A stretch of 52,593 bases of DNA, filler included, from Jimgerdemannia flammicorona (GCA_003990765.1; 2 parts of 2 records of this genome joined end to end with filler, not necessarily neighbours in it); one strand, 5' to 3'; shown: positions 2,208 to 37,000, counted from the whole stretch's first letter. Program-made: numbers and translations. Notes: generated by a model from the letters alone, not told the origin.

Positions 2208-2437
2208 TAGTTTTATTATATATATATTGTCATGTAGTGGTTGCTGAGTCCTTCAAATATACCAGATTCTCTTCAAGGTATATCTCTTAGACTAACTCAA
2301 GTTTGTTATAAGCAAGTTCTTATTGGAGTGCCTTCCCAAGGTCTTATAGTCCTCAAACTTCTTATCTTTAACTGTCTTGTTATCTCTTAGATTGCTTGCA
2401 AGGAAGTGTGTATAAGTGAAACCAGAACTTGACTGAC

Positions 2438-2470
2438 TTTATTTCAGAAGAAATAAGGGGAGTATTTATA
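2438..2470 (-). promoter_or_regulatory. LTR genomic-RNA TATA box (TATAAAT, 2464-2470) and poly(A) signal (AATAAA, 2438-2443)
   Basis: GTATAAATAC followed ~20 nt later by AATAAA; conserved in all five family-A LTRs; the same TATA context occurs in family B. Confidence 0.7.
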
Positions 2471-2572
2471 CAAAATATAATTTAATAGTTGCTAAGATAT
2501 AAAGCTAAATATAAATTACAATAACTAAAACTACTAAGTTCCAGGGCTGGCACTGATGGTTGTACAGGTTCA

Positions 2573-2700
2573 GAATACTGGTATTATTTAGTGTCACATC
2601 AAAATACCAGTACTGGAACAATTTCGCATCACCTCAGAATACCAGTGCTGGCATTATCTAGTATTATATGAGAATACCAGTACTGGTATTATTCAGTGTA
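2573..2700. repeat. Array of palindromic motifs in U3 (AATACCAGTACTGGTATT-like, ~33 bp period)
   Basis: Perfect 18-bp palindrome at 2673-2690 plus degenerate copies near 2612 and 2638 and a half-site near 2574; repeated in the other LTR at ~9805-9932. Confidence 0.8.
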
Positions 2701-2709
2701 ATAAAGAAC

Positions 2710-3522
2710 TTAGAGCAGAAAGTTCAGGGCTTCATCATCATCATCATCACTGAAGAAGATGAGATCTGCAAATTCGTCATATAGGTCATGCATTTCACGT
2801 ACTTCAATGTTGTATGGGATGACATCATCACCAATGATGTCAATATATTCAGCTGTGGTGGAGAAATCAGGAACAAGATCTGGAGCTCTCCAGTTTATGA
2901 GGTTCTCTTCCACAAAATAGGGAACAAATGTAGGGTCTTGAAGAGGTCTAACCTGGATGCTTGGGCCTTGGAATACTGAGATCAATCCTTGCAGGAACTG
3001 GTCTGGGTTGTCCTGAAGGATAGGGTGCCAGAAGTCTTCTACTTCTTCACTGTTGAGGGTGATAGTGGACTGGGCTTCTGTAGCCACCCTGGCTTCTAGT
3101 GCATTGATACAGTGGGATGATAGGTCTCTGAAGTCTGAGACTCTGACATACTCCAAGTTGGGGATCGACCATGGTACATGTCTGAAGATCTGATAGATCT
3201 TCTTAGCTGTCCTCATTTTGTATATATCCATGAGAGTGGCATCTTGTAGCTCTTGGATGCTGGCCTGTGGAAACTCCTGGCAGAGAAGGTTTCCTATTTC
3301 ATACTCCTGCCACATTTGGAGGTATTCGGTAGCAATGGTGATCCTTGTTTCCATTTCACAGTGGTAGAGAATGAAGTGATAAGGGTCTGTAGTACTCAGG
3401 TTGACACTAGAAGTCCTTCTTGAGCAGGTCCCTATGGCTCTTCTGATATCTTGGAACATCCTTTCCTTGATCGAGATACCTTGGTGATTCCTTGACCTTG
3501 AGGTTTAGCAGGTAGCAGGCAT
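2710..3522 (-). pseudogene. LTR(U3)-encoded accessory protein, ~270 aa, acidic C-terminus; single premature stop
   Basis: The 249-aa ORF extends in frame to ATG 3522 across one TAA (3505-3507) that is CAA in the sister LTR; ends FSDDDDDEALNFLL. Confidence 0.85.
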
Positions 3523-3602
3523 TTTGTTTATGGTAAGTCTTTGAGCTATTTTGGGATTGGTGGTTCTTGTTGGTTGCTGCTACTGTGGTTCCTTGATCCT
3601 TC

Positions 3603-3646
3603 TTTTATATTCTTCAGGATGCTTATATTGTGGTCACAATGACTCA
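3603..3646 (-). promoter_or_regulatory. Internal promoter of LTR gene: TATAAAA (3603-3609) and TGACTCA site (3640-3646)
   Basis: TATA ~80 nt upstream of the ATG with A/C-rich leader; TATA conserved in all family-A LTRs; TGACTCA is the AP-1/Gcn4-type consensus. Confidence 0.65.
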
Positions 3647-3764
3647 CAGTTGGTCATCATTGCTCATCTCATATACTGTATGATCTTCTTGTGCTCTGCT
3701 CTGGTGGCTTGCAAGGAAAGACTGTCTCCTGTGCTGATGTTATCATTCTGGGGTCACCATTACA

Positions 3765-9459: not shown

Positions 9460-9462
9460 AGT

Positions 9463-11005
9463 TGTCACATAGTGGTCGCTGAGTCCTTCAAATATGCCAG
9501 ATTCTCTTTAAGGTATATCTCTTAGACTAACTCAAGTTTGTTATAAGCAAGTTCTTATTGGAGTGCCTTCCCAAGGTCTTATAGTCCTCAAACTTCTTAT
9601 CTTTAACTGTCTTGTTATCTCTTAGATTACTTGCAAGAAAGTATATATAAGTGAAACTGGAACTTGACTGACTTTATTTCAGAGGAAATAAGAGGAATAT
9701 TTATACAAAATATAATTCAATGGTTGCTAAGATATAAAGCTAAATATAAATTCCAATAACTAAAACTACTAAGTTCCAGGGCTGGCACTGATAGTTGTAT
9801 AGGTTCAGGATGCTGGCATTATTTAGTGTCACATCAAAATGCTAGTGCTGGAACAATTTTGTGTTACCTCAGAATACCAGTACTGGCATTATCCAGTGTT
9901 ATATGAGAATATCAGTGCTGGCATTATTCAGTGTAACAAAGAACTTAGAGCAGAAAGTTCAGGATTATGGGGGCTTCATCATTATCATCACTGAAGGAGA
10001 TAAGATCTGCGAATTTGTTATGCAGGTTGCGCATTTCACATACTTTGATGTTGTGTAGGATGACATCATTGCTGATGATGTCATCACATTCAGCTGTGGC
10101 AGGGAAATCAGGAATAAGATCTGGAGCTCTCTAGTTTATGAGGTTCTCTTCCACAAAATAGGGAACAAATATGGGATCTTGGGGAGGTCTAACCTGGATG
10201 CTTGGGCCTTGGAATACTGAGATCAATCCTTGTAGGAACTGATCTGGGTTGTCCTGAAGGATAGGGTACCAGAAGTCTTCTACTTCTTCGCTGTTGAGAG
10301 TAATAGTGGACTAGGCTTCTATAGCCACCCTGGCTTCTAGTATATTAATATGGCAGGATGACAGATCTCTGAAGTCTGAGACTCTGACATACTCTAAGTT
10401 GAGGATCGACTATGGTGCATGCCTGAAGATCTGATGGATCTTCTTAGCTGTCCTCATTTTGCATATATCCATGAGAGTGGCTTCTTGTAGCTCTTGGGTG
10501 CTGGCCTGTGGGAACTCCTGGCAGAGGAGGTTTTCTATTTCATACTCCTGCCACATTTGGAGGCATTTGGTAGCAATGATGATCCTTGTTTCCATTTCAC
10601 AACAGTAGAGAATGAAGTGATAAGGGTCTGCAGTACCCAGGTTGATACTAGGAGTCCTTCTTGAGCAGGTCCCCATGGCTCTTCTGATGTCTTGGAACAT
10701 CCTTTGCTTGACCGAGATACCTTGGTGATTCCTTGACCTTGAGGTTTGGCAGGCAGCAGGCATTTCATTTATAGTAAGTCTTTGAGCTATTTTGGAATTG
10801 GTGGTTCTTGTTGGTTACTGCTACTGCAGTTTCTTGATCCTTCTTTTATATTCTTCAGGATGCTTGTACTGTGGTCACAATAACTCACAGTTGGTCATCA
10901 TTGCTCATCTTGTATACTGTATGATCTTCTTATACTCTGATCTGGTGGCTTACAAGGAAAGGCTGTCTCCTGTACTGATATCATCATTCTGGGGTCACCA
11001 TTACA
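9463..11005 (-). repeat. 5' LTR of copy A1
   Basis: Direct repeat of 2228-3764 differing mostly by C/T and G/A transitions. Confidence 0.95.
9945..10763 (-). pseudogene. LTR-encoded accessory protein, second copy
   Basis: MPAACQTSRSRNHQG...; TGG>TAG stop at 10410-10412 where the sister LTR has W; same LNFLL* end. Confidence 0.85.
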
Positions 11006-16855: not shown

Positions 16856-17222
16856 TTATTTTGGGGACGTTTACCTGATATGTGTGGGAGGGGTCAGAAT
16901 CGTAGAGGTAGTCCTGATGGGTGCCGGTAACCGGGTTAGATTTGGGCCACACCGGCTCTTGTGGTTGGCGTTCAGCATAGTAATATGCCCTTCATGTTCA
17001 TCATGTTTCATCCGCCCATTTATTTACTATATCCGTTATCTCCTCATTTCCAGGCACGGCCTTCGTTGCCGGGGCGGCCATTGTGATTGTGTAGTCGTAC
17101 TGACCGAAAGGGATAAAACGGCGGAATCTCCATGGCGGTCGGATCAGCGATGGTGCCCGCACTCGCCGGGGTCCTTGTGGGTGAGAAGTGGTCGTGCTGT
17201 TATAGAGCGCGTTGCATAGCAC
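16611..17222 (-). pseudogene. Possible intron-containing gene remnant with acidic segment
   Basis: Plausible GTAAAC..TAG intron holding a long poly(A), then exon HINRRRKESEVIIEVPR...DDDEEVGTQ followed by GTCAGT; upstream frame broken by stops near 17001. Confidence 0.3.
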
Positions 17223-17807
17223 GGGCCTTGAACTGCTGTTTGGAGGTTTTTCGAGAGTTGGGGGACTGTCATCAAATAAACATGCGTCAGTTGTGGCTGA
17301 ACCGAACTGTACACAGAAATTTGTGGCTCGCGATTAAGTATATATTGTCACATAGTGGGCGCTGAGTCCTTCAAATACATCAGATTCTTTTCAAGGTGTA
17401 TATCTCTTAGACTAACTACAAGTTTGTTATAAGCAAGTTCTTATTGGAGTGCCTTCCCGAGGTCTTATAGTCCCCAAACTTCTTATCTTTAAACTGTCTT
17501 GTTATCTCTTTAGATTGCTTACATGGAATTGAATGTAAGTGAACTAAGGGAACTGACTTTATTTCAAAGAAAATGAGAGGAGTATTTATACAAAATATAA
17601 TTCAATGGTTGCTAAGATATAAAGCTAAATATAAATTCCAATAACAAAATAAATAAAATACTGGAACACAGAAAACTTCAGTTATAAGTACAAATTTGAG
17701 TGTCTATACAAATAGTTGCACAAGTTCAGGATGCTAGTAGATTTCAGTTGTACAAGAAAAGGATGCCAGAAGATTTAGATGTTCAGATAAACAGTTACAC
17801 AAAGAAC

Positions 17808-18658
17808 TCAGAGCAGAATGTTCAGGATCCTGGGGGCTTCATCTTCATCACTATTATTAAGGTTAGAGATCAGAGACAGGATGTCTTCAAAGGAGATAAG
17901 ATCAGTAAATGTTTCATCTGTTTCACATATGTTTTGCATTTTGCATACTTCACACATGTTGTCAATTAGCAAGATGACATCATCACATTCAGCAGTGGCA
18001 AGGAGAGCAAGGAGATCAGGGGCTCTCTAATTGATAACATTCTCTTCTACAAAATAAAAGACAAATATGGAGTCTTGGAGAGATCTAACCTAGATACTGG
18101 GACCTTGGAATACTGAGATCAATCCTTATAAGAATTGATCTGAATTGTCCTGGAGAATGAGATTCCAGAACTCTTCTATCTTATCACTATTGAGAGTAAT
18201 GGTGGATTGGGCTTCTATGGTCACTATGGCCTCTAGTATATCTGTACAGTAGGCTGACAATTCTTTGAAGTCTGAGACTCTGGTATACTCCAAGTTGGGG
18301 ATTGACTATAGTGCATATCTGAAGATCTGATAAATCTTCTTAGCTATCCTTATTTTATATATATCTATAGGGATAGCATCTTATATCTCTTGGAGACTGG
18401 TCTGAGGGAATTCCCAGAAGAGAAGATTTCTATTTTATACTCCTACTATATCCAGAGGTATTCAGTAGTGATAGTGATCCTTGTTTCCATTTTATAGTAG
18501 TAGAGGATAAAGTGATAAAGGTCACTAGTATCCAGATTGAGGCTAGAAGTCCTTCTGGTGTAGGTCCTTATAGCTCTTCTGATATCTTGGAATATCCTTT
18601 TTTAGACTGAGGGGCCTTGGTGGTTCCTGGATCTTGAGGTTTGGTGAGTGGTAAGTAT
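17808..18658 (-). pseudogene. LTR-encoded accessory protein, copy A2 3' LTR
   Basis: Homologous to 2710-3522; ATG>ATA, multiple stops; ends ILNILL*. Confidence 0.8.
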
Positions 18659-21600
18659 TTTGTTTATAGTGAGTCTTTGAGTTATTTTGGAGTTTTAAGA
18701 GTCTTGTTTGATTTGCTACTGCTATAGTTCCTTAGTCTTTCTTTTATATTTCTTGAGATATCTATCTTGTAGTCATAATGACTTATGGTTGGTCATCATT
18801 ACTCATCTTATAGCCTGGGTGAGTTATGCTATATAATCTTCTTGTGCTCTGATCTGATGGCTTATAAGAAAAGACTATCTCCTGTAATGATATCACTATT
18901 CTGAGATCACTATTACATCTTTCTTCTAAATAAGGATCTTCTCTTGAACATTCTCATTCATTGGTCTAGTCTGAAAATTTGCTAATTTCATAATCTCTGG
19001 CAGGAGGTCAAAAAGTGATATTTATGGGCTAGTATCTTCCTTATATATTTTAGTATAATGGTGAAGAGTCACTCTCTTCAGAGTAAGAGCCTAATTCTGA
19101 TCTTAACTAATCAGTTGATGGTTTGAACTTCTCTGGCTTTGAAAGTCTTATGGATGAGTAGTTGCTAGTACCATATCTCTTAGAGAATGGTCCAGACAGA
19201 TTGCCTGCTGGTCATAAGACATATTGTTACAATTTGTGGACTAGAACCTCATAGGTGATCATAATATTTTACATCTCTTATATGGGTTCATGGTACTTCT
19301 TGAGTGTGTTCCTATATACTATGGTAAGCAGTATGGTCTCTGAGAGTTTTCTAAACCAGAAGATAGTTCTCTTGATATCTTGCATATAGAAGGGTCCTTC
19401 CCATTTGGGCTCTAGTTTTCATAACCATAAGACTTCTACTATATTTTGATATAGTAGAACCTTTTCTCTAATTTGAATAGATTCTAGAGTCTTGTGATTC
19501 TTTTCTACATTCTTCCTTATTAGTACTTATGACTTGATGATATAATCTTCTGCCTTCTTCTTGATTTGATATAGTCTCTGGATTTCTGAGTCAATTTATC
19601 ACTAAGTTAGATCTAGATTTATAGCTGAGGTTCTATCAGAATCTTCTTCTCTGAAGATCAGTTCTCTTGGAAAAGTGTGTACTCTATAATTGTATATCTT
19701 ATAAGAAAGAGAGGGCAGTTGAGAGGTAGTTATCCCAATTCTTATATGTTTCTGATATCTTAGCCAGAATGTTCTCAAGGGTCTTGTTAGTTCTTTCTAT
19801 CTATCTATTATTTTATAGAATCTGTTGACAAATTCTGTACCACAGTCTATAGTAATTTGTCTTGATGTCTTATTGTAGCAGATGATTTCTTAATATAGGA
19901 AGTTAGTAATAGAGAGAGCATTGGCTTCTATAATACTCTTACTTATATCTATTTGGTAAAGAGGTCTACAATAACTATGATGTAGTAGTTTTCTGATAGA
20001 GTTACTGGTAGTGGTCTAATGATATCTATTATAATGTAATAGAAGAGAATAGATTTGATTCTTGATAATCTGGATGTCTGGTCTTGCTGATCTTGTTTCT
20101 GTTTTTGGCACTTATCATACTTTTTGACAAATTGGCACAGGTCTTCTTCCATCTTAGGCCATCACATAGTTCTTCTTATCTTGTCATATATATTGGTTCC
20201 TCCTAGATATCTTTGTTCATATACTTCCTTCATTACTTGATACTTCTTATTTTCAGATATTATGAGTTTTTCTCCTTTTCTGAGTATAGTGTTGTCTAGT
20301 TCAAATTGTTTCCAAGTCTAGTTAATAATAGTGATAGTCCAGGGTTTGGAGTAGTTGGGCATCTTCCACTACCTAAGATAGCTGATTAATCTATAGTATA
20401 ACTTCTTATTTATGTTGAATAGTCTTGATGGGAGTATTTCAGAGTATCCTTGAAAGTGCATCAGTATTGGTATTAGTTCTTCCTGAGCAGTATTTGATAG
20501 TACAGTTATACTCTTGTAGTCTGTAGATCTATCTAATATATATTTCTTTGGAGTTCAAAGTGTGGAATAGCTAGACAAGAGCAGAGTAGTCTGTTTGAAT
20601 AGTGAAGTATTTCTCAGCTAGATAGTAGTAGAACTTATCTACTGCCCAAACTACTGCTAAGTATTTGAGCTTGCATGACTTATAGTTCTGTTCTGCTCTG
20701 TAGATACTTCAGCTTATATAAAAGATAACATATTTATATCCATCTTTCTTCTGAGCTAGCACTACTCTAAGTTCTATAGTACTTATATCTGTCTGTAGGA
20801 TGGACTCTAGATTTCAATCTAGTCTTCTGAGGATAGGTGCTTGGGTTAACCTAGTCGTGAGTTTATTGAAGGTTTCTTGACATTTCTTAGTCCATTCAAA
20901 TTTGGTCTCCTTCTTCAGTAGCTTATAGATAGGTGCTATAATATTAGAGTATCTTTTAATAAATCTTCTATAGTAGGAGGCCAGTCCAAGAAAGATATAG
21001 ACTTTTGTGGTTGTTCTTGGTCTTGGATAGGCTACAACAGCCTCAATATTCATAGAGTCTATATGAATTCCAGTCTGGTTGATAATGTGTTCTAGGTAGG
21101 TGATTTCTTGAGCTATAAACTTATACTTCTTGGGCTTGATATAGAGGTCATACTCCTTGAGCTTCTTGAGGGCTAGCTGTATATAGTTGATATATTTCCA
21201 TGTAGTATTACTGAAGAAGATCATATCATCAATATAGACAAAGAGCTACTTTCTAATATTATTACTAAAGACTCTGTTCATCATTTACTAAAAACTTACT
21301 AGAGTATTACATATTCTAAATAGTATTTGCAGGTAGACATAGGTGGTATCAGATGTGATAAAGGTTGATTTCTCACTGGCATCTTGAGTGAGACCAATCT
21401 GATAGAAGTCTGAGAATAGATCTAAGGTAGTATAGTATTTAGCTTCATAAGGATTTCTTGAATATTTGACAAGAGCTGCCTATTCTTCTTGGTAATTGTA
21501 TTGAGCTTTCTATAATTAATACAGGGTCTTGGGGAAAACTCTCTAGACTTACTTTCTTTCTTTAGAGTAAGGACAATGAGTGAAGCCCAGGGGCTGATAG

Positions 21601-24600
21601 CTTGCTTGATGATACTGACTTCTTTTATTTTCTTAAGTTTTGCTTGTAGCCATTCTCTGTAGGCAGGTGGTATAGGTCTGGCTTTCTGATAGATAGGCTT
21701 GGTATCATCAGTATCAACTTTATAGTAGTACTTGAGTTCTTGATTGTAGATGTCTCTAAAGTCTGTAGTAAGTACTCTTTCATTTTGGTACAGGATCTTG
21801 AGAAGTTGTTCTTCTATGGGAAAGTTTTCTCTAATAGTATATGTATACTTGCTTGAGTTCTTATCTGTCTTGTGCTTGAGTTCAGTAATCTTGGTTGCAG
21901 CATAGACTCCTCTTATAGTAGATCCAAAGCCTTGTTCTCCTCACTTAGTCTTGATGAGATTGATGGCTTCAGTGATCTTAGGCTTCTTGACTTCATGGAT
22001 CAGTATCTGGCCAATTCTGTCATACTTCTTAACTTCAAATGGGGTGGTAGAGTTGTGATTTCTAATTATAAGAAAGATCTCACCAGTGTAATCAGTGTCA
22101 ATAACTCCTTCTTTAACTGAGATTTTGCTCTTAGTCAGATTGCTCCTGGTCTTGATAATTCCAGCATAGTTCTCTGATAACTTGACTCCAGTTCCAGTAC
22201 CAAGTAGAGTGGTGGTCTGTGGTCTGAGGAAAGCATCTTAGATGTTGGTAAGGTCTATTCCTATGGCTCCTTCAGTCTTGTATTCTGGGATCTTAGTTTC
22301 AGGGTAAAACTTCTTGACCTTGAGAGTGATGTCTGATTCTTGTTTCTCCTCATTATTGCTATCAGCTTGAAGCTCTGGAGACTGGTCATCTTCTTCAGCT
22401 TTCTTTTTTGCTTCAGTAGCTTCTTGCTTATACATATCTTTGTTAATGGATTTTTCTAACTTTACTGATATAGGACTAGTAGTCATTTAGGTGTTTGAAG
22501 CAGTATATCCTAGTACTATGGGGGTATCTTTCTTGAGGAGTATAGCTATTAATGATCTTGTTATACCACTGCTCATCTGTAAGCTTTGTTATCTTACTCT
22601 TGTTCTTACATACTGAGTATATGAAGACTTTTGTATTTTCTTCATCTTCTTCCTCTATGTCTAGTAGTACTTCTTTATGGATATTAATAGATACTCATAC
22701 CTTTCTTTCTCTATAATTAATTTGTATTTTCTAGGTATTGAGATCAATAATAGCCTTGGCCTTATAAAGTCTTTGGTTACTAATGAAGATATCATAGTTG
22801 GTAGCACTTGTAACAATCATATCTACTGAGATAGTAGCTCCTCCAATCTTGATAGAGACTTCTCAGATCTTATCTAAGAGAGTAGCTCATATATTATCTG
22901 CTATAACATAGACTATTTTGATAGATTCTTCAATATCTCAGCCTAGGCAGTCAATTGCCTTTTTGCTCATAAGATATCCTTAAGCACTGGTATCAATGAT
23001 AGCATCAAAGATATAATCTTCAATCTGATATTAAGTATAGGCTGAGGTCTTATACTGATCTTCAGATTCTTTGCCTGAGTCTTCTTGTTTATCTTCCTGT
23101 ACATTGTAAGCTTTTATGATCTTGTACTCTTGGTTCTTGACAGTAGTTGCAAGTCCTACTCTCAACTACTGTCTGAAGGCAGAGACTTCTGCTAGTTGTC
23201 TAAAAATGGTATTGATCTTCTATTCCTTGAGATCCTTATAGATATCATACTAGTAAATCTTAATCTTACATAGCTTCTGTTCTTTCTTGCTTTCACTTTC
23301 TTCTAAAACTAGAGTAGTATCTTCAATAATTTGGCAGGCAGCTTTATCTAACTCTATTCTTGATCAATCTTCTCAGATTGGATCTTACTTTGAATAGTGA
23401 TGGTTGAGATCTTTTTTTGTCTTCCAACTGACTTGCTGTTGTCTTTCTTATCATAGGGCTTGGATCAGATTCTAGTAGCTTCAGTAACAGGGTAGAATTC
23501 AGACTCTTTATAGTATTCTTTATTATCAGTATTATCAATCTCCTTGATGACTACTATATTGATTTGTTTTCTAGTTCTGGTGGCATCACTTGATTGAGCT
23601 CTGAACCTTATTTCAGTTATATAATTCTTTGTATAGTGGTCTTCTTAGTATATGATGGTACATTTCTCTATAGTAGCTATAAACTTCTGCACTGGTCTCC
23701 TGTTGATACTTAGTACTTCTCTAACAATATTACCAAGATATACAGTCATCTTGACAAACTGCTGGGCAAGTTTCTCTACTAGGTCAGCTTTGGTCATTTT
23801 GGGGATAGGTGGGGATAGGTGGGGATAGTTGTCTGTTGATAGCTGTAGTAGATATGATACTGGTTAGTTTTGGTGGCCCTATCTTGATGTCAGTTATTCT
23901 TTCTATTGAGTGTTCAGCAGAGTGTCTGATAGTCAAATATCTCTATACAAAAACTACTTTCTGATCAAGGGTCAGAGCAACTAAAGTAGATCAGATTGCT
24001 AGAGTAATTTCATGGTAGACTCCTTTTAAGAAGGTTGAATCAGCTATTTGTTCCTTGAGGACATTATCATAGTTAGCTAAGACAATCTGGTAGCAGATTT
24101 AGGTATAGAATAAGTTGAGATCTTTGCTGAGTTCCTGGTAGATAGTATTGAGTTAATCTTTGAGAGCTTGCTTGATCATGTAGTTCTGAGAAAGTTCTTT
24201 ATATTGACAAGTTTGACTGTATCAGCATTAGTAATAGTGGCTATATTGAACTTGTCTCTGGTAGGTCCTCTGAGGCTAACTGGTAGAAGGGCCAATTGTG
24301 CATTTATGGTAAGAACTTATATGGCATCAAATTGTTCAAAGTCTTCAATGAAGGTCAGGATTGACTCTTTAGTAGTAAATCCATAGAATGTGGAGGGATA
24401 TATTTCTATCTTATCTTGAATTCTTACAGGGGGTAACTCTTATAGTCAGGATAGTTATTATGGTGGTTATTTGTTTTTTCAGCTTGAAAGTGAGAAATTC
24501 ATCTTGAATTACTAGTCAATGGGTACTAAGTTATCATATAGTGGGCACTGAGTTCTTCAAATATGTCAGATCCTCTTCAAGGTATATCTCTTAGACTAAC

Positions 24601-24991
24601 TACAAGTTTGTTATAAGTAAGTTCTTATTAGAGTATCTTCTCAAGGTCTTATAGTCCTCAAACTTCTTATCTTTAAACTATCTTATTATCTCTTTAGATT
24701 GCTTATGTAGAATTAAGTATAAGTAAACTGAGGAAACTGACTTTATTTTAAAGAAAATGAGAGGGGTATTTATATAAAATATAATTCAATAGTTGCTAAG
24801 ATATAAAGCTAAATATAAATTTCAATAACCAAATAAATAAGATATTAGAACATAGAAAACTTTGGTTGTAAGTATAAATTTAAGTATCTGTACAAATGAT
24901 TGCATAAGTTTAGAATACTGGTAGATTTCAGTTGTATAAGAAAAGGATACCAAAAGATTTAGATGTTCAGATAAACAGTTATATAAAGAAC

Positions 24992-25843
24992 TCAGAGCAG
25001 AATGTTCAGGACTCTAGAAGCTTCATCTTTATCACTGTCATTAAGGTTAGAGGTTTGGGACAGAATGTTTTCAAAGGAGATGAGATCAGCAAACATTTCA
25101 TCTATTTTGCATATATCATGCATTTTGCATGCTTTGCATATGTCATCAATTAATGGGATAACATTATTACATTCAGCAGTAGCAGAGAGAGTAAGGAGAT
25201 CAGAGGCTCTCCAATCTATGACATTCTCTTCTACAAAATAAGAGATAAATGTGAGGTCTTGGGAAGGTCTAACCTGGATGCTGGGACCTTGGAATACTAA
25301 GATCAATTCTTATAGAAATTGATCTAGATTGTTCTGAAGAATGAGATTCTAGAACTCTTCTATCTCATCACTATTAAGAGTAATGGTGGATTAGGCTTCT
25401 GTGGCCACCATGGTCTCTAGTATATCTGTATAGCAGGCTGACAATTCTTTGAAGTCTAAGACTCTGGTATACTTTAAGTTGGAAATTGATCATAGTACAT
25501 ATCTAAAGATCTGATAAATCTTCTTAGTTATCTTTATTTTATATACATCTATAGGAGTGGTATCTTGTATCTCTTGGAGACTGGCCTGAGGAAATTCCCA
25601 GTAAAAGAGATTTTCTATTTCATACTCCTGCTATATCCAGAGGTATTTGGTAGTAATAGTGATCCTTGTTTCCATTTTATAATAGTAGAGGATAAAGTAA
25701 TAAGAGTCACTAGTACCCAGGTTGAAACTAGGAGTCCTTCTGGTATAGGTTCTCATGGCTCTTCTGATGTCTTGGAACATTCTTTCTTGGACTGAGGGGC
25801 CTTGGTAGTTCTTGGACCTTGAGGTTTGATGAATAGTAGATAT
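24992..25843 (-). pseudogene. LTR-encoded accessory protein, copy A2 5' LTR
   Basis: ORF-track piece 24992-25306 (VFQGPSIQVRP...VLNILL) matches the A1 protein. Confidence 0.8.
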
Positions 25844-26015
25844 TTTATTTATAGTAAGTCTTTGAGCTATTTTGAGATTTTGTAAGTCTTGTTTGAGTTG
25901 CTGCTACTATGGTTCCTTAGTTCTTCTTTTATATTCCTTGAGATGTCTATCTTGTAGTTGCAATGACTCATGGTTAGTCATCATTGCTCATCTTGTAGCC
26001 TGGGTGAGTCATGCT

Positions 26016-26016
<1 letters not shown>

Positions 26017-26092
<76 letters not shown>

Positions 26093-26094
26093 TT

Positions 26095-26148
<54 letters not shown>

Positions 26149-26247
26149 TTTTACAGACTCTATGTCCTGTAGATTTTTATTGGAAGGAAACCTAGACTAT
26201 ATAGGCCAAATCCCTCTCCCACCACCCATCAAGCTCTGCTTTCTCAT
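26017..26247 (-). mobile_element. 3' end of a non-LTR element (AATAAA + long poly(A) tail) abutting the A2 LTR
   Basis: Reverse complement matches ~30415-30530 (GGCCTATATAGTCTAGGTT...CCAATAAAAATC). Confidence 0.75.
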
Positions 26248-26347
26248 NNNNNNNNNNNNNNNNNNNNNNNNNNNNNNNNNNNNNNNNNNNNTTAATTAAT
26301 TAANNNNNNNNNNNNNNNNNNNNNNNNNNNNNNNNNNNNNNNNNNNN
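26248..26347. other. Assembly gap with synthetic TTAATTAATTAA linker
   Basis: N-run / TTAATTAATTAA / N-run; stop codons in all six frames. Confidence 0.95.
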
Positions 26348-27877
26348 CTGCAGGTCGGGTATCCCATGTGAGGGGTTTTTCAGGAAGGGTTCGCCACCAT
26401 TCTTCAGCAGGTCCTCGGAAGAATGTAACAACTCGGCAGACATAGGCTGTAGTGGTAGCAAAGAGTTGTTCCAGAGTGTGGTCTTGATTGTTTGTCAGAA
26501 CACGGTCAGCAACTCGTTCATTAGTCCATTGATTGGCTTCAAAGTTGGTGTCAACTACACTAATGAAGCTTTGGACTTCTTGTGCAGTACCATTGAAGGT
26601 AGGTAGGCTCAGATTTTTGGTAGGTCGGGTCTGTTCGGCTAAGGCAGTAATGGTTGCTGCCATTATAGCTACTTGGGCTGTGAGATCTAGAATCTGTTGG
26701 TTCGCCATGTTGATTGCTGGAGGCGGTTGGACTGCTGGTAGTGGTATTACCGGTACTACTTGAGGTACTGGTGCAGAGTGTGATGGGGTTCTTTGGGTCT
26801 GTGTAAGTTGCTGGAGTAGTAGTTGTGGATCTGGAGTGAGCACTTGATAGATAGCTGTTTGTTGCTGTGTAGGTGTATTCTGTCCGGATGGATGTGTGTC
26901 TCCTTCGGTAGTGTATCCGGGATCGAATTCAGTGAGATACTCCTCCTCTTCTTCGGTTTGGTCCCCGTGTAATTGGGTTTGCTCGGCGTCAAAGTAGACA
27001 GAATCAGTTGTATATCTGATTTCAGACGGACTTAATTCAAAGTCAAGTTCAGGTTCGGTATTGGTTTCAGGTTCGAGTAGAGCTGTAGCAGGGCCTGCTT
27101 CAGATTCGGGGTCAGGTAGTTGATGAAGGGTTTCTCTTGCTTCTTCCTTAAGAATATGGCGGGCCTTGCTGTTCTGGAATCGGTAGTATAATGCGGTCTT
27201 GGTCCTGGTACGGTGATAGTCGGTAGAGTTGAGCCACTTGGCTATAGAGGCTTGGGCTTCGTGAGGAACTAAGGCTAGAAAGACTGCTGCTGGTTGTCCT
27301 AGGTTGCTCGGATTTATGGAGCTGACAAAACTCTTGTTGAGAAGAGTAAAGAAGGCTTCAATAAGACCTTCTTCGTCTTGACTTGCTGGGTGTAGTGCAA
27401 GGAGTTCGGTAAATAGGGTTTCGCCTATTTGCTGGTTTAATCGGAGTACTTCTTTCTTTGAATGAAGTTTATCCCACTTGTTGCAGGTGTGGAGGTCAAA
27501 TTGTCCTTGTACGTCAGGTTCAATTCTCTCCAGATTGTCAGATGGTTCAGGATAAATTCCAGTTCAGAGGTTGGGCTTTATACCAACTTATAGGAATTCT
27601 CAAAGGGGTTTGTAGCGGGGTGAGGAAGCGTCTTGAAGCGGAATTGGATTGTAAACCGCTGCTACCAAGTTGTAAGAGGGTTACTTTTTAGGGTGACCAT
27701 TACGTAGTTCTAGAAGGGTTTTCTGGAAGTTCTGGATATTCTGGAAGACCGTTTTCTTATGGTCAAGATCAATTTCATATGGAGTACGTCCTCTACACTT
27801 ATTGATTTCAAGATCGGGTTGACGTCTCAACCAAAGTCCTTTTTTCGGACTAGTTCTGGATGTTCAGGATTTTCCAT
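26348..27877 (-). pseudogene. Gag of family B with long N-terminal extension
   Basis: LPTFNGT...FRGPAEEWW...TWD capsid-like motif; frame stop-free from ~27560 to the gap and traceable upstream through a few stops. Confidence 0.75.
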
Positions 27878-28348
27878 ATTTCAGGAAGTTCAAGAAACTA
27901 AGACCAGCTTAGTTTAATTGGCGTATCGCTGCAGACAATACCCAATTAGGAAATTTCGTGACGGAATTAGGAGTAGGACCTAACAGAGAGCGGATTTACT
28001 TAAGAGTGGTTTGTGGGTTATGGAATAGGTTTATTCGCTATTCATGATATTGCTATACTAGGAGTATTTGTGTAAAGGGATATTGTGGGGGAAGTATTCA
28101 GGAATGTTCTTGTGTGTTCGAGTCTGAGATTCTGAGGTCTGGGGGAGGGGGTATTTATACTAGTGAGGGGCTATCTGGACTATGCTAAATATGGATGTAG
28201 CACTAAGTGCCTTGCTGAGTTGGAATGCAGTCACGTAGTACAAGTGTGATCTGACATGTCAAGAGATCGTCTGACTGCTGAGTCAGTTCACAGTCACGTC
28301 GTACAAGGCTAATCTATCTATACTATGACTGCTGGACTATTTATAGAT

Positions 28349-29446
28349 TTAGGCACTATCTGGGTAGTCTTCGATGACATCACCATCGATTGCATCATCT
28401 CTGATGAAGTAGTCATCTAGGAAGAGTGGTTCGCGGATTACTTCTCCTTGTTGGCTGAGGTAGTAATATATTGGGACTTCATCTCCATCCCACAGGATAG
28501 CATCGTCTGTTTCATATGCTGGATAAGGTGTTGGTGGGTGAAGGATGGGTGTACTGTCTTCGCTTTTATCGGATTCGCTATCTGCATACCTTCTATAGGT
28601 TACAGCACTATGAGTCGCGGGGTTGTAGTAAGCTGGCGGCTGTGATTCAAGTTGCTCGTACTCGGGTGGTGGAGTGGTTGGTTCAATCTCGAGAGTTGTC
28701 TGAAGGTACAGGTTGTGTTCTCCAGTCTCTTCATTGTAGTTGAAGTAATCGGGGGTGAACGCAGGTTGGTATTCGTGCCAGTGGTCATTGTCCCAATAAG
28801 TCTCATATGCTGTTATGAACTGTTATAAGTTCATCGGCAAGGTTGGCGGAGTGATCAGGGTTGGTAGAGATCCTTGGCTAGAGGTCATGTTGGCATCAGA
28901 GGGGTCATTGTCTTCTGCTTCATCTTTATCGAAGTAGATTATATCATAGACATCCTTCATGGTGTATCCGACTTGAGGCATTTGCAGGATATGGTCATCG
29001 GGGTGCGGAAAGGTTCTGTCTGTGGTTTCGACATACTCGAGGTATTTGTGGTTGATTTCTTATATCATGTCGTCTATTTGGCCGTAGGACAGGGTAGCAA
29101 CCATTTCGCTGGTAGTAACTTGGAGGCGGGAAATAAAGGTGTTGTACTCGTAGAAGAGTTCTTGATGTTTGTGGGCGATGAGCTTCTGGTGTTGAGACAT
29201 CTGGGTCATGTCTGTATTGTGGTGGTGTTCGACCATGTCTTCCAAGAGGTGGCCGATCTGGTAGTAGCTTGAGATTTGTCCGATTCGGTGGGCCTCGCTA
29301 AGCATGTTCAGGGCGTTCCATCGGGCTTCCACGAAGTAGAGGGGTGCCAGGCTATGGATATTCATGAGGGGCAGAGGGGGTGTGGCTCGGTTGACAATGG
29401 CATTCCAAATATCAGCACGGATGCGGTTGTAGATCTCAGTGGTCAT
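28349..29446 (-). pseudogene. LTR-encoded accessory protein of family B, 365 codons, two in-frame TAA
   Basis: The 128-aa ORF continues in frame past TAA at 29060-62 and 28823-25 to ...LFLDDYFIRDDAIDGDVIEDYPDSA*; TATATATA at 29517-29524 and A/C-rich leader. Confidence 0.8.
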
Positions 29447-29700
29447 GTTTGTGTGTTTGGAAGTTGTGGTTTGTTGTTTGTTTTGGTTCTTTGATTCAAC
29501 GTGTCTCGGTGCTCAGTATATATACATTTGGTCCTGATTGGTAAGGTTCTGTTTGTGTAGATCTTGTGTTCCGTGACTTCGTATTGACTCAGCTTTGTGT
29601 ACTGTGACTTCGGTTTGACTCAGCTTCGTGATCAAGCAGGTGATTTCCAGATTGGTTTAGAGGTCGCGTGTGATTTCAGTGGCTTGTTCAGAGGGTGACA

Positions 29701-30499
29701 TGTAATTTCGGTGGCTTGGAGGTTGTGCGCTTACAGTTCTGGTATAGGTGACTGCTTTTCAGGTGTTGTTGGGATGGAAGGGGAGATGGCCATCACAGAT
29801 AGGAGAAAGGGCGATAATGGTGGACCAGTAGGGTGCCAGGCTGGGGATGGCTATTGGGGCTGGGGCAGGTGCTGCTTCGGTAGGGCCTTTTGATTGATGT
29901 GGTGCAGTTAGATGGTAGGTGTCACTCTCAGCTTCTTTTGGCAGTCAGGCAGATTAGGCCCCAGTTGTTAGGGGGAGTTGGGGGGCCTGAGGCTATCCAT
30001 TTCAGATATCTTGGCTACACTCAACTGGAACCAGGAGCTGATATGGCAACATAATCGAGGCCCACAGGCTTGAGTAGTGGGATATTGGGGGTCTCCTCTC
30101 ATCTCACATGTAAGTTCTTTACTTACCTCGACTGGGAGAACCAGGCCCTACTCATCATGTTGTGCTTTGATGAGAGTTTTTCTTCTACCTGTCATTCTCT
30201 TTAGGGTGGCAAGGGCTATTCTATTCGGCTTGGGCATGGTCTTGTACATATGTTGGGTTCTCAGGCATATGCTTTCAGTCATTGACATATGGCTGGGTTT
30301 CCCCTGGTAGTAGGGAGAGCATAGTGTACAGATTGAGATACAGGCCTCCTTTGGCCCTACTGCACCTGGTATGGTTGAGCTGCTGGATAATAGCTAGCCT
30401 AAGTTAATAGGGGGACAGTGCTTGGTGGGTGGTAGGGGAGGGTTTTGGCCTATATAGTCTAGGTTCTCTTCCAATAAAAATCCATGGGATATTGAGTTC

Positions 30500-30530
<31 letters not shown>
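29701..30530 (+). mobile_element. 3' fragment of a non-LTR (LINE-like) element with AATAAA and poly(A)
   Basis: G-rich strand, W..R motif (LYICWVLRH) like L1-type ORF2 C-termini, AATAAA ~30473, poly(A) 30503-30530. Confidence 0.6.
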
Positions 30531-31969
30531 TGATTCATTTAGTTTTGATGGCATCACTCTCAATGATGGTAAATATCCACTACCATCTCTACCACTTACT
30601 GATTCCAAAAGAAAAAAGGTTCTTATAAAAAGAACCCCATCAAGATTACTAAGGAGGTAGAATGTGCAGCAAAGTTACAGCAAAAGTGAGAAGAGAAGGA
30701 GAAAGAAAAGGAGATAAGAAGAGCTGATAAAAAAGCCAAGATAAGTATCACAATTACAATTAGCATCACAATCTCAACAACCCCTACCCTCAAGAGTATA
30801 CTACAATCTTATGAAGAACCAGATACTTCTAATTCAGATAAGGAGGAGGAGGAGGAGGAGAAGAGTGAAGATGCATTATCATCATAGTTTATAACAATTA
30901 CTAACTCTAAGTATTCCTATATCAATACATCTGTAACCAACCTATGATCTAGTAACTACTTGTACAATCTTATTGATTATATTTATAAATACTTTAATAA
31001 ATATCAAAATGGAAAAGACAAACTCTAATCTCAAGAAATATACCACCTATATAACAAAAGGTATACTGTATACTTAAGATCTATTATATAATATAAACAT
31101 ATAATGAAGTATCTGAAAATGAATGAATGAGCTGAGAATAGTATGATATTATATACAATATATTCTGTAAACTTTGAAACCTCTTTTCTGTTATGCTTGT
31201 CAATTCTACTAGTAATACTATTATTTGTAAAAAGAAATTAGTATTAGTATATATAAAAAGAACAAATAACTAAGTAGAAATAGCAACAGCCTTCTAAGAG
31301 ATAGTATCAATCTTTCAAAACTTATAGTTAGTAAAGAAGTATCAGCTGGTAGAGAAGAGAAAACTCAGAAATTATTGGCTTAATATTGAGAGATAAGAAT
31401 AAAAGATTAGAGAAGATAGAGAGTGAGAAATAAAGAAGAGAGAGTAGAAGACAAAGGAAAAAAATATTTAAGACAAAACAGAAAAAGAAAATATAAGTAT
31501 ATAAACTTAAAAAATATAAATATCAGATATTGTAAAAAAGAAATATAAGGTGAGATTAGGTAAGTAGAAGCAATTAAGTAGTAGTAATAATAAAGATGAG
31601 AGCAATGACAATACTATCACTACTACTTCTAACAGTAGTAGTGAGGAGATAGATAAAGAAAGAGAATAAAAATAAAAATAAAGAGAATTTATATATAAAT
31701 AATATATATAATAAAATATTATAATTTATACTAATTTAATATAAGTTATAATTATAACTTATCTATAATCTAACTAATACATATAATTTAATAAATATTT
31801 GAAGTTAAGTCTCTGCTAGACTTGAGAGATATTAGAAAAAAAAAAAAAAAACAGATATTATTAAGAATAACTAAATTGATAAGAGCTCATCTTTCTCCAG
31901 TACCATTCAGATTACACAACCTTTGGAAGGCACTTACAACATCATTTTTGGAGAAAAGAGACTAACAAC

Positions 31970-33992
31970 ATGGTGACTGACAGGTAACCTGAGGGATATA
32001 CTGGGCAGGGTGGCCCAAGTACTTTTAAATAGCAGCAGGTGGGGAGGGGCCCAGGCCTGGGGGGGGACATAAGGGGACTACTGGCAGGAGGATGTAGAAG
32101 GGGGGGAGATAATAGTAGAGGCCAAGAGTCTAGGAGGGCAAGCTTTGTGGAGACAGTGAAGGGGAGGCAGTAGGTGTCAGAGCTGGAGGGCTGACTGAGG
32201 AAGGGCAAGGAGAACAAGAAGGCAGTGGTGTATGAGAGAGTAGCCCTTGGAAGGAGGGGCAGTGAAGCTGGGGGAGTAGCAGCTGGAGGGAGTGTAACCT
32301 GCTGATGAAAAGGAGACTGCCAATCTGGAAAAAAATTCAGATATGACAGCTGATGGTGAGACTGAGCAGCTGAGGCTTAGGAGACAAGGGGATTTGGCAG
32401 ATGGCATGATGGGCCTGGCAGTGGTCCTATTACTCAAAAAATCAATCTCGGTATTTACAGTTACACTGTGCTTCTAGAGCTTAGTGGTGATGGCGAAGAT
32501 GGTGCTGGGGCTTATTGCTAAGCAGGTGGTGGGAGCTGTATCAGTGAAGTTTTTGAAGGAACTAGAGGGTGTAGAGATGGGTTTTGAAGAGGCTGAGCTG
32601 GAGGAGGCACTGAAGGTAGAATTGGTAGTGGGGGAGGTGTGTGTTCTGATGGCATGGTTCTTGAAATGGAATCTGAGAGTGGTCCAACTGCTGGTGAAAG
32701 GAGTGCCCACGGTGACAGTAGGGGAGACGAGAAAGAGAGTTGAGGAAGTCATAGCTGAATATGGAGAGGTAGTGGATATTGGATTCAGGGTCTGGGAAGG
32801 GACCTCACTCAGAACTGGTGATGTAGATGTGAGGATTCGGCTGGCTGGGAGAGAAGCTACTGAGAAGGCGAGGGACTGGCCTTCAGTGATAGTCTGGGGA
32901 GCAATCTTGTGCAAGGTGATGAGGGTGAAGGGAAGTGAGAAGGAGGAAGAGGATTTACTAGAAGCACTCGAGAAATTGAGTGGTACTGTAGAATGGTGAG
33001 TCAAGGCTTGGAAGGCCTTTGTGGAGTCAATGCACTTGGAGGTGGTGGACAGAAAGTGGATTTGGGTAGACAAGGTGCAGTGAGAGAGAGCTCAGGAGTA
33101 TAAGAGACAGAAGGATCTGCTGGTTAAACTGGGAGGCAGACCACTGGAGGATGCAAGCAAGATGATGGGCATAGAGGGGGCCAAAGTAAGTGCCTGGGCT
33201 GGCAAGAGGAGTGGGAATGCCAGGAAGGAGACAGGGAAGGAGAAGGAGGCTAAGGTTAATGATCTGTATGCTGATGGCACCTTTGAGGTTTGGGAGGAGG
33301 TCTGGGAGGACTCCCCCACCCCTTCTCCTCTTATTAGGCAAGGCCCAGCTTCCAGAAACAAGATAGTGGAGGATGTGATAATGCTGGGGGCTCAACAGGT
33401 GAAATTCGGAGTTCTAGAGGTGATGAATGGGGGACATGTGGTGGCGGTTGGAGAGGAGGAACTGGTGGATATTCCAGAGGTGTGGGATGAGGCTATGAGT
33501 ACTGGAGCTAACACTATGATGATGGATGGAGGGAGGCTGGCAACCCCTAGAGAGAAGGAGGTGGGGAACCTACTCTAGATGTATAGGATGATGAATAATC
33601 TGACAGCAGAAAAGTTGGGAGAGGTGGACTTGCAAATGATGGATGATGAACACTGGGCACAGATACTATAGGGAGATGGAGTGATGATGGCACTAAAGGC
33701 AGAAATTCTTGTAGTGTATCTGGAGAAGGAAGGGTATGAAGTGGACAAGGAGTGGGAGGCTGAGATGGCAGTTGTTGCTGGAGAGAGGGCTGAATACTGC
33801 TGGAACAAGTGTCATAGATTGCAGCTTTGGCAGGAGGCTTGTATTGAGTACCAGGAGGAGTTTGAGGAGAAGGCTGATGGGGAGATGAATGAGCTGTTGG
33901 CTAGATTAGAGGCTCAGAGGGCTGAAGAAGAGGAGGTGATGGCAGAACATAATCTGGACATGGTATAGGAGGAGATGAATATGGAGCAATAG
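31970..33992 (+). pseudogene. LINE ORF1 (RRM-like core, acidic C-terminus)
   Basis: LLVKGVP...IAEYGEVVDIG...TGDVDVRI RRM-like pattern; multiple stops. Confidence 0.75.
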
Positions 33993-34019
33993 AGATCATC
34001 TGATAACAAAATATATTTC

Positions 34020-37000
34020 ATGATGAACAGTACAACCAACATTTTTTCTTTGAACATGAATGGGTTACAGGGTGCTGTTAGATATAGAAATATTTTTACT
34101 TAGCTGAAGGGATTGGAGGCCGATCTCTTCCTCTTACAGGATGTCAGGTGTGAGAATAATTCTGATAGGATGGAATGGACAAAGGAATGGGGTGGCATGG
34201 TGATTTGGAAAGGCAAGGTTGGGATTCTAGTTCGGAAGAGCAAAGGGGAGTTAAGAGATGTGAGGAGCTGGGGGGAGAGGCTAGTCTGGGGTGAGTGGAT
34301 TCATGCAGACTGAGAGCCAGTTATAGTTGGCTCCTGTTACTGCCCTGCTATATGGGGTAAGCATGTAGATTGGGTAAAGGGTCTCCAGGAGAGTGGGATC
34401 CTTGCAGAGGCTGGGGTGGATATGCTTGGGGGAGATTTCAATATAGTTTGGGATATACTGATGGATTGAACAGATGGAGGATGGGGTGCTGAGAGCAGGA
34501 GCAGGAGACTGGTAATGTGGGAGGAAGTAGAAAGGCTTAGTGTACTGGTGGATACTGGTAGGGAGTACTGAGAAGATAGGAGGGTTTATACACATTGGGC
34601 TGTAGGCCTGGGGACTAGGATCGACTAGATCCTGACAGCCAGCTGCTGGGGCCAAGATGTTTGGAAGTCACTGGAGGTAGAGTGGTGCCCATGGTCAGAT
34701 CACTGGGGCCTTTTGGGACAGGGATGCTTTGGGGGAAGTGGGGATGGGCCTGGACATTGGTACCTCAATTTCTCTTTATTAGATAACAAGTCTCAGTGGA
34801 ATGAGTGGACTAAAGACATTTAGCTGAGAGTGGAGATCTGATGATGGAAGGGTATCTCAATTGGGGTTTGGTGGATGAGGATGAAAGAGATGGCCAGGAT
34901 TTACTAAAGTGGGGCTGGTAAGGAGGCAGGGAAGCAGAGAAGGCAAAGAGTGCAGTGGGCTTCTACTAGATTAACTAGGCTTCTGGAGGAGTGGGTGAGA
35001 CTGGTGATATTGGAGAGAGAGGAAGATTGGAGAGTAATGAGGGTAAAGATGGAGGTTAGGGAACTACAACAGGTGCTGTGGGAAGAGGAAGAGGCAAGAG
35101 TACAAGGCTTGACAGCAAAGCTTCATTGGCAGATGCTGGAGGATAGAGAGAGGCCTTCCTGGTTTCTCATGAGGGCTCTTAGAGCAAAAAGGGTACAGCA
35201 ATGGTGGGAAGGGGTACTTGACTCAGATGGTGTACTCATGCATGGGGTGCAGGACATTCTTGAATCATTGAAGGAGTGGTGGAGCAGTTTGTGGAGTGAG
35301 GAGGAGGGTGGGGTAGATGCTGCTACCAATGGTTGAATATTGGAGGATTGGCACCCACTATAAGTAGAGGGGCTAGATGACCTGGTGATGCCTATAAGAG
35401 AGGATGAGATCCACCAGGTTCTTACCATGATGACCCTAGGTATGGCACCTGGGGAGGATGGTCTGCTCTGGGACTTCTGGAAGCAAATGGTTGGAGTCCC
35501 AGGTGTGATAGAGGAGATGATGGCATTGTGCAACTCTATATTACAGACAGGGAGATGGGTGGGGGAGCAGGATCTGGGGCTGGTGATGCTGCTTTATAAA
35601 AACAAAGAAAGGTGAGAGGATTGGAAGAACTGGCAGCCGATAATATTACTAGATATGGACAAAATGCTGGTGACTAAGGTGGTGGTTGCAAGGCTATAGA
35701 AGGTGGCCTAGCAAGTCATGGGTATTGAGCAGAGGGGATTTGTGGGTGGTTGGCTCATTAGAGATGATACAGCCTGGGTATATAGAGTTATTGAAGAGAC
35801 AAGAGCCTGTGGACTGAATGGACATCTAGTCTTCTTGGACCAGAAGAAGGCTTATGACTGGGTGCAACGAGTCTGGCTGGTGAAGATATTGGATAGAATG
35901 AGGGTTCTGCACCAATTTCGGTCAGCAATAGTCAGCCTACTGGAAGGGAGTAGGGCTGCCATCATGTGTAATAGACATAGAGGGGTGGCATTTCTCCTGG
36001 GTAGGGGGGTGCCCCAGGGAGACCCACTGTCCCCCATTCTGTATGCCCTTTCCCTGGAACCCCTAATGGACAGAATTAGGCAGAGGATAGCAGGGCTCTC
36101 TATCTATAAAATTGAGTGGAAAGTTGGAGCCTTTGCAGATGTTATGGTGATTGGTTTGAGATCGATTGCTGATGTCAAGGAGCTCAAGAAGACAGTAGAG
36201 TGATATGAGGAGAACTCTGGGGCTAAGTTGAATTGGCACAAGTGTGAAACAATAGTGCTAGGCAATAGCCTGGTGGGAGGAGAAGTTATAGGAACAATCA
36301 TCCCCACTGATGAGGCAGTGTGGTACTTGGACATCTATTTGTCAGTCTATGGGTCAGTTCTGCCCAGGCCTTGGTGGGAGCAGAGAATTGGAATCTGGGA
36401 GAAGGACCTGTGGAGTTGGGGGGGAAGACACTTTTCTCTGGCAGGGTGGGTCTCGATTTTGAATGTATATTGGCTGCCAAAGCTGTAGTATTTAGCTTAT
36501 CATCTGGACTTCCTAGTCTGGGTAGTGAAGTGATTGGTAAAGGTGGCAAAGAGATGGATTTGGACTGGCAGATGGAGTCAGATTGGTTGGGAGACCTTGT
36601 CTCTACCAGTGGCAAGAGGGGGTCTTAGGCTAGTGGATTTTCCCAAATGACTACACTGCTTGAGGGCATGGTGGCTGAAGAGGGCAGTGGAGTTGTGAGG
36701 AGGTGGTTGGATTCCCCTGCTATAGAAGATCTGGGAGAGGTGGACATCGCCAAGAGGTTCAACTGATGATCTCCTCTCATTGGTTGGACTTTGGAACTCT
36801 AAACTATTGTGATACAAAGGATTCTGGTAAGGGATAGTGGAGGGAGTGTACTGTATTGGTATTTGCTAGCAGGGGAATGAGGGGGAGGTGGCTTGGGACC
36901 CAGCAATGTAGAGATGGAATAGTATTCTGCTGGGTGGTGTTCCTCTAATTGATTTTGACATTGGTGATGGAATGGAATACTAAAGGGGACCAGGCCAGGA

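Follow-up and report, generated by a model that had tools for sequence, protein, structure and literature searches.

A protein-coding frame inside the long terminal repeat of a truncated retrotransposon in Jimgerdemannia flammicorona

The DNA analysed here is a stretch of 52,593 nt from Jimgerdemannia flammicorona (GCA_003990765.1), referred to below as the window, in which long terminal repeat (LTR) retrotransposons of two families, called A and B, are present. The region under study corresponds to the U3 (unique 3′) segment of a 5′ LTR that belongs to a truncated family B element. The frame of 365 codons that it carries is, judged by its coding signature, a real protein gene, killed in this copy by two nonsense codons. 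The best overall explanation, to which a probability of about 0.6 is assigned, is that the family B LTR carries in its U3 a separately transcribed accessory gene which has decayed in this copy, and that family A has the same layout.

The family B LTR and its frame

As the window contains a single family B LTR, this was delimited by its termini, by the primer-binding-site-like (PBS-like) site, and by the ends of public contigs. The termini are of the TG...CA type and contain a short inverted repeat, with TGTAAG at 29735 pairing with CTTACA at 27671. The PBS-like sites of family B (ACTTGGTAGCAGCGG) and family A (ACTTGGTATC, found directly after both family A 5′ LTRs) are identical over their first 8 nt, and the sites may bear a likeness to initiator tRNA-Met. 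Logan contigs of four public runs, including those labelled X1, X2, and X20, were aligned to 26340-30700. From the soil-metagenome run X1, 5534 contig pieces match the stretch at 85 % or more, including 663 that match at 99 % or more; from X2, a run of a coded organism, 614 pieces reach the 85 % level. Public contigs end at 29735/29736 in both directions (two contigs in X1; four and four in X2), and one X20 contig ends exactly at the other LTR boundary, 27671. In the four X2 contigs whose match extends to 29735, a polypurine tract (AAGAAGGGGAGAG, then T, on the sense strand) lies immediately 5′ of the LTR start. A purine-rich tract before TG is the context of a 3′ LTR, therefore the sequence bearing the open reading frame (ORF) also exists as a 3′ LTR, and the ORF, the first TATA box, and the repeats upstream of it are within the LTR, in U3. 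With the termini and the PBS-like site, these contig data place the ORF inside the LTR, as the first-pass annotation had supposed. Scans with family B alignments of metagenome contigs (74 and 339 pattern matches), and scans of viral contigs (55 pattern matches) and genome contigs (66 pattern matches), gave no confirmed further copy of family B.

The ORF of 365 codons reported in the first-pass annotation has the right length (29446-28349) but is not open, being interrupted by TAA at codons 129 and 208; the open stretches are of 128, 78, and 157 codons. The range originally given, 28349-29524, corresponds to this frame together with its 78-nt leader and the TATA box at 29524. The gene frame has two stops, whereas the remaining sense frames have 15 and 26 and the antisense frames 5, 25, and 19. 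Composition-matched shuffles of the frame contain a mean of 15.8 stops, and two or fewer were seen in 0 of 5000. Two relatives, P0002 and P0003, were found in a search of 5.8 billion proteins. P0002 (a metagenome protein of 247 aa, from a 998-nt contig) is identical to family B residues 115-365 at 166 of 250 positions (66 %), with gaps that are in-frame only, and is open through both of the family B stop positions, having glutamine at each. P0003 (128 aa) has 91 % identity to residues 1-128 and ends where the first stop of family B falls. That 247 codons have stayed open while the protein diverged by 34 % argues that this frame is under coding constraint.

The TATA box, leader, repeats, second TATA box, and AATAAA that had been described for the family B LTR were all found in place (Table 1). 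The TGAGTCA motif in its repeats is presumably a site of the AP-1/Gcn4 type, bound by basic leucine zipper (bZIP) proteins, and the occurrence of putative bZIP-type sites before both TATA boxes suggests that the LTR may respond to host stress-type activators. Under the mechanism proposed here, the gene would be its own transcription unit inside the LTR, in which the bZIP-site repeats and the TATA box at 29524 would start an mRNA of ~1.5 kb. This mRNA would pass through the ORF and stop at the LTR's own AATAAA (28035), its 3′ end being common to that of the genomic RNA, which would start after the second TATA box (28159). With the unit located in U3, both LTRs would receive it during reverse transcription, and solo LTRs would retain the gene.

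Four family A LTRs are present in the window, each with an ORF inside, starting with TGTAAT and ending with GACA. The proposal of a shared architecture holds: the order of the signals, a leader of ~80 nt, the ORF, the repeats, the TATA box, and AATAAA all match between the two families. The protease (PR), dUTPase, reverse transcriptase (RT), and RNase H domains of family A were confirmed by Pfam, and intact family A relatives were found in metagenomes, being 5 of 294 candidates, with 61-81 % identity. Selection on the family A ORF was assessed from the two elements having both LTRs, in which differences are called fixed where both LTRs of each element agree and private where they occur in one LTR only. 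Fixed transitions comprise 39 replacement and 37 silent differences (N39:S37), which is fewer replacements than expected (expected N fraction 0.67, p 0.003), and fixed transversions are N23:S8 (expected N fraction 0.86, p 0.07). Private changes, which have arisen after insertion, look neutral (N76:S43, p 0.27); a Fisher test of fixed against private transitions is not significant (p 0.10). The ratio of roughly 0.5 is consistent with modest purifying selection on a fast-evolving protein in the active lineage of family A.

The pattern of change in the family A copies was also noted. The LTR copies (2150-3860, 9390-11100, 17320-19010, and 24450-26080) differ almost solely by transitions, and post-insertion changes in the ORF are 119 transitions and four transversions. 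CpG is nearly absent from these LTRs (seven CG in 1711 nt), with C-to-T changes commonest at CpA. The window copy often has cysteine or histidine where the metagenome copies have arginine.

Relationship between the family A and family B proteins

The first-pass annotation had proposed that the two LTR genes belong to an old, conserved family under selection. The parts of this concerning real coding sequence and, for family A, modest purifying selection are borne out, while the homology of A and B is only suggestive. Similarity between the two proteins appears marginally above chance and is confined to the N-terminal ~110 residues. The six pairs of motifs that had been aligned by eye are all present in the two translations, co-linear and with offsets of 11-15 residues, and local alignments recover most of them. 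Both proteins have acidic ends, as had been seen, with an aspartate plus glutamate (D+E) fraction of 0.26 over residues 301-365 in family B. The profile-profile alignment suggested for the N-terminal parts gives a mixed answer. With hhalign, the family B profile (three rows) aligns with that of family A (six rows) at P 0.017 over 94 columns, B 5-99 with A 18-114, recovering the same motif pairs, and with eight family A rows P is 0.021, but the hhalign probability is just 2.3-2.7 %.

Searches in the direction from A to B gave the clearest signal. A hidden Markov model (HMM) of the family A profile scores 7.1 bits against family B residues 1-128, a score reached by 7 of 2000 full shuffles and by none of 2000 shuffles of 20-residue blocks; its score against P0003 is reached by two of 2000 full and one of 2000 block shuffles. 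When the same model was run over the 249 window ORFs of at least 60 aa, the family B ORF, at 9.3 bits and E 0.008, came first among the 240 that are not of family A. BLASTP of P0003 against the family A protein P0004 also gives E 0.008. Smith-Waterman comparisons of eight pairs have z values from -0.3 to 4.8, the best being P0003 with P0004, whose score was reached in 2/2000 and 0/2000 shuffles. The helices of the low-confidence structure models are co-linear under the alignment, at residues 3-18, 34-75, and 85-114 in B and 18-35, 47-83, and 100-113 in A, the B model dividing them as 3-18, 34-54, 58-75, and 85-114.

The chief alternative is that both LTR genes are real but unrelated, an ORF having been gained in U3 independently by the two families, with the N-terminal likeness due to chance and composition. 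This is unlikely. Several results count against common descent. The reverse profile test is not significant: of 2000 shuffles, 386 reach the score of the family B profile against the family A protein P0005, 1013 that against the first 135 residues of P0005, and 61 that against P0004, and over the window ORFs the family A ORF is only sixth among the non-B ORFs, at 0.7 bits; the N-terminal part of this profile rests on two near-identical rows. There are no cross matches between the families by tblastn at E ≤10, nor is any family A protein found at E ≤0.001 by the family B profile among 1.84 billion representatives. BLASTP of the window copies gives E 0.1, and of the eight Smith-Waterman comparisons, the two involving the decayed copy A2 carry no signal (z -0.3 and 0.2). 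The C-terminal two-thirds of the proteins have no significant similarity (390 of 2000 shuffles for P0002; P 0.12 for a second hhalign alignment), and comparison of the gag-side ORFs found none. The AlphaFold models, with predicted local distance difference test (pLDDT) values of 32.8 for B and 36.1 for A, are unusable. The low hhalign probability fits independent gain as well, and the motifs were picked by eye, which inflates their apparent significance.

Against independent gain stand several pre-specified A-to-B tests, which give P of 0.0005 to 0.02. The six motifs are, moreover, co-linear with near-equal spacing, and both alignments begin near the N terminus. The two families also have the same LTR layout, TGTAA termini, and start of the PBS-like site. 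Since U3 genes are rare, two independent origins in one genome would be the less economical reading. When the position, layout, termini, and PBS start that the families have in common are taken into account, the A and B proteins are probably homologous in their N-terminal part.

It is very unlikely that the ORF lies outside the LTR, either as an additional ORF between the 5′ LTR and gag or as a piece of another element or host gene beside a shorter LTR. Such an arrangement would be compatible with the single LTR of this copy, for which there is neither an LTR pair in the window to delimit it nor a target-site duplication, and with the TATA box and AATAAA pair that lies 3′ of the ORF. However, the terminal TGTAAG and CTTACA pair across the whole LTR and the PBS-like site follows at 27670, 3′ of the ORF, therefore the ORF is upstream of the PBS and not between it and gag. 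The contigs of other copies break at the same boundary, with the polypurine tract before the LTR start, and family A has the same layout with both LTRs present. It is more improbable still that the frame is no gene at all but a chance opening in A+C-rich, T+G-poor DNA or a shadow of the other strand: the sense strand is indeed poor in T (0.215) and G (0.163), the frame is broken in this copy, and no family or fold matches it, but the shuffles, the stops in the antisense frames, and the 66 %-identical relative, open over 247 codons with only in-frame gaps, all argue otherwise.

Feature coordinates and other content of the window

The features on which the reading of a gene within the family B U3 depends are collected, with those of family A, in Table 1. 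The two N runs around the TTAATTAATTAA linker mark joined contigs, thus the flanks are not necessarily neighbours in the genome. The family B element is cut at 26348 by this gap, so that only ~1.3 kb of its interior is in the window, and its pol and 3′ LTR are absent. The gypsy assignment made for family B in the first-pass annotation is accordingly provisional. Pfam has no match in this interior, either for 26333-27563 (E ≤1) or for 26340-26708 (E ≤0.01). Within the internal ORF, ~285 codons (26709-27563, minus strand) are in frame 5′ of the first methionine of the gag-like part, with no ATG and no family match. No tRNA genes were found within the window.

Table 1. Positions of the LTR, gene, and signal features of families A and B, in window coordinates unless LTR coordinates are stated.
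Feature	Position	Strand	Remarks
Family B 5′ LTR	27671..29735	-	2065 bp; TGTAAG...CTTACA termini, contig breaks, PBS-like site
LTR-borne gene, decayed copy	28349..29446	-	365 codons plus stop; ATG 29446, TAA ending at 28349
N-terminal helical part of family B protein, 128 aa	29063..29446	-	sole part similar to family A protein
In-frame TAA, codon 129	29060..29062	-	P0003 terminates at the same place; glutamine in P0002
In-frame TAA, codon 208	28823..28825	-	glutamine in P0002
Two 25-nt repeats	29662..29718	-	near 5′ end of family B LTR
Two 31-nt tandem repeats	29564..29625	-	5′ of TATA box 1; TGAGTCA in each
TATA box 1, TATATATA	29517..29524	-	78 nt 5′ of ATG; presumed promoter of LTR gene
TATAAATA, first copy	28338..28345	-	immediately after stop codon
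Two 40-nt repeats, 63 nt apart	28213..28315	-	between ORF stop and TATA box 2; ACGTGAC in both, TGACTCA in one
TATAAATA, second copy	28152..28159	-	presumed genomic-RNA promoter at end of U3, from LTR layout
AATAAA polyadenylation signal	28030..28035	-	in R
PBS-like site ACTTGGTAGCAGCGG	27656..27670	-	directly 3′ of family B LTR end
Family B internal ORF, gag-like end	26348..27563	-	interrupted by assembly gap after ~120 residues of gag-like part
N gap with TTAATTAATTAA linker	26248..26347	.	two N runs flanking linker; linker has stops in six of six frames
Family A element 1, 3′ LTR	2228..3764	-	1537 bp; ORF 3522-2713
Family A element 1, 5′ LTR	9463..11005	-	1543 bp; ORF 10763-9948, broken
Family A element 2, 3′ LTR	17346..18917	-	1572 bp
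Family A element 2, 5′ LTR	~24531-26015		
TGAGTCA, LTR coordinates	B 114 and 145; A 119		A in one copy
First TATA box, LTR coordinates	B 212; A 156		
ATG, LTR coordinates	B 290; A 243		
ORF length			B 365 codons; A 271 codons
After ORF			B repeats; A repeats
Second TATAAATA, LTR coordinates	B 1577; A ~1295-1328		
AATAAA, LTR coordinates	B 1701; A ~1322-1355		
LTR length			B 2065; A 1537-1572

Around the family B LTR there is a 115-nt inverted repeat with arms at 26125-26238 (plus strand) and 30416-30530 (minus strand), 86 % alike; T or A tracts occupy 26017-26152 and 30531-30575. On the opposite strand, AATAAA closes each arm and a long A run lies ~25 nt beyond it, an arrangement resembling the 3′ terminus of a poly(A) retroposon. 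Given the contig breaks at 29736, the family B LTR appears to have inserted into one copy of this retroposon. In run X20, guessed to be RNA though possibly DNA, word depth is very high in the contigs covering R-U5 of the LTR (27800-28091), and the ORF and gag have few contigs or none; contig depth is no basis for ranking the parts of the stretch.

Elsewhere in the window, two diverged copies (70-76 % alike) of an element like a long interspersed nuclear element (LINE) are present in inverted orientation, at 31888-37500 (plus strand) and 38800-43754 (minus strand), with an RVT_1 match at 35712-36203 and an extreme GC skew of about +0.5 and -0.5. A cytochrome P450 gene at 13295-14700 (minus strand; Pfam p450, E 1e-19), which is probably a host gene, has ~45-50 % GC and lies between AT-rich DNA and retrotransposons. 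The pol of family A contains its dUTPase domain at 6567-7616 (minus strand, E 4e-27), between protease and reverse transcriptase. Long T runs, of at least 70 nt, lie beside GC-richer DNA at 16790-16863 and 11781-11912.

Protein make-up, known systems, and significance

In a low-confidence model, the family B protein has a helical N-terminal part of ~140 residues, and the remainder, an extended acidic tail in which proline and tyrosine are abundant, is predicted to be disordered. The lysine plus arginine (K+R) fraction is 0.03-0.06, while D+E rises to 0.26. So few basic residues speak against direct DNA binding by the protein, and the DNA-binding transactivator that was considered first is weakened by them. 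PPxY-like motifs (PPEY, PPAY) were likewise dropped as functional candidates, as P0002 is without them.

Family searches gave no assignment. Pfam returned no family for the pieces of family B or for the family A ORF (E ≤1). A sequence search of the PDB found no match for A, and the only match of the family B profile has E 0.19. In these Pfam and PDB sequence searches, neither protein fell in a family of the retroviral U3 accessory genes (sag, nef). Rfam returned nothing near its gathering score. In the ESM Atlas the best value was 0.83 with A and 0.93 with B; feature counts were below 170, none of the named families had a high count, and the matches are leads only. Four similarly named clusters (a 105-aa hypothetical protein, Closter_coat, Translat_reg, and DUF6192) occur in the Atlas lists of both proteins. 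The sizes of Translat_reg differ between the lists (147 aa and 82 members; 146 aa and 52 members), so these are perhaps different clusters; the overlap may come from clusters that act as hubs for orphan helical proteins and was not counted as evidence. A resemblance to a helical family expanded in Glomeromycota, which had been suggested, is not supported: among 1.84 billion representatives the family B profile found two proteins, both of them family B copies, and word-based searches gave one, one, and five proteins, all on contigs of at most 1625 nt, the five obtained with family A being family A copies.

Additional genes in LTR retrotransposons are usually reported from the region between the two LTRs, and genes lying wholly in U3 are described from a few retroviruses. 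Accessory genes of foamy viruses reach into U3, in a system with an internal promoter and an acidic transactivator. The VANC anti-silencing proteins of Arabidopsis VANDAL transposons are fast-evolving, act on their own family, and are found beside short repeats in non-coding DNA. With VANC the analogy is functional only, as VANDAL is a DNA transposon and the low basic content of the family B protein argues against DNA binding.

The closest parallel in position is sag of mouse mammary tumour virus (MMTV), of which the LTR, 1300 nt long, contains the sag ORF; such ORFs are otherwise rare in the LTRs of orthoretroviruses (PMC2664473). As in family B, sag is a long sense ORF wholly within the U3 of a long LTR and is hence in both LTRs. 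Unlike sag, to which there is no sequence or family match, the family B gene has a TATA box directly 5′ of the ORF, suggesting its own promoter, and its host is a soil eukaryote rather than a mammal. The nef gene of human and simian immunodeficiency viruses (HIV/SIV) is also an accessory gene at the 3′ end of the genome overlapping U3 (PMC2664473). However, nef and the foamy-virus genes overlap U3 partially and start in the internal region, whereas the family B gene and its TATA box are wholly inside the LTR, and no homology was found.

In plants, Ogre ORF1, Retrosat2/RIRE ORF0, and the antisense ORFs of Grande and Retand are similar to the LTR gene in being family-specific, fast-evolving additional proteins that are present in most copies, and the ORF0 proteins of related families have as little as ~10-34 % similarity (PMC3485330). 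These additional ORFs occupy the interval from the 5′ LTR to gag or that from pol to the 3′ LTR (PMC7264820 and PMC3485330), outside the LTR, unlike the family B ORF, which is upstream of the LTR end at 27671 and of the PBS-like site. Among fungal elements, the LTRs of crapaud in Podospora have variable 5′ halves, and in the passages concerned ORFs are mentioned for gag and pol only (PMC10787394). In a bdelloid study, none of the phrases searched for to describe an ORF inside an LTR occurs (PMC5408684). Full-text literature searches, in a collection with a minority of the subscription journals, listed no paper describing a protein gene carried within the LTR of a retrotransposon other than a retrovirus.

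The family A LTR gene of the same window resembles that of family B in its U3 position, order of signals, leader length, acidic C terminus, and weak co-linear N-terminal similarity. It differs in length (271 against 365 codons), in the C-terminal two-thirds, in the repeat motifs after the ORF, and in its arginine-rich N terminus, which family B does not share.

The best guess for the role of the LTR protein, held with low confidence, is a trans-acting accessory factor, which would work through protein contacts to raise the expression of its own element or to blunt host silencing. Put forward tentatively is a wider proposal, in which the LTRs of at least two long-diverged families would be gene cassettes, with promoter, ORF, and poly(A) signal in U3, that carry one old, fast-evolving lineage of accessory gene. 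With thousands of sites, solo LTRs among them, supplying it in trans, the product would act for its own family, for example against silencing or by co-activating the second LTR promoter, and would be the equivalent in retrotransposons of the U3 genes of retroviruses.

Should the gene be active, each LTR and each solo LTR would be a potential gene, which would change the annotation of LTRs in such genomes, and the gene would offer a way into the question of how the elements cope with silencing by the host. Common descent of the gene in families A and B would make the arrangement an old and maintained one, which would argue for a function.

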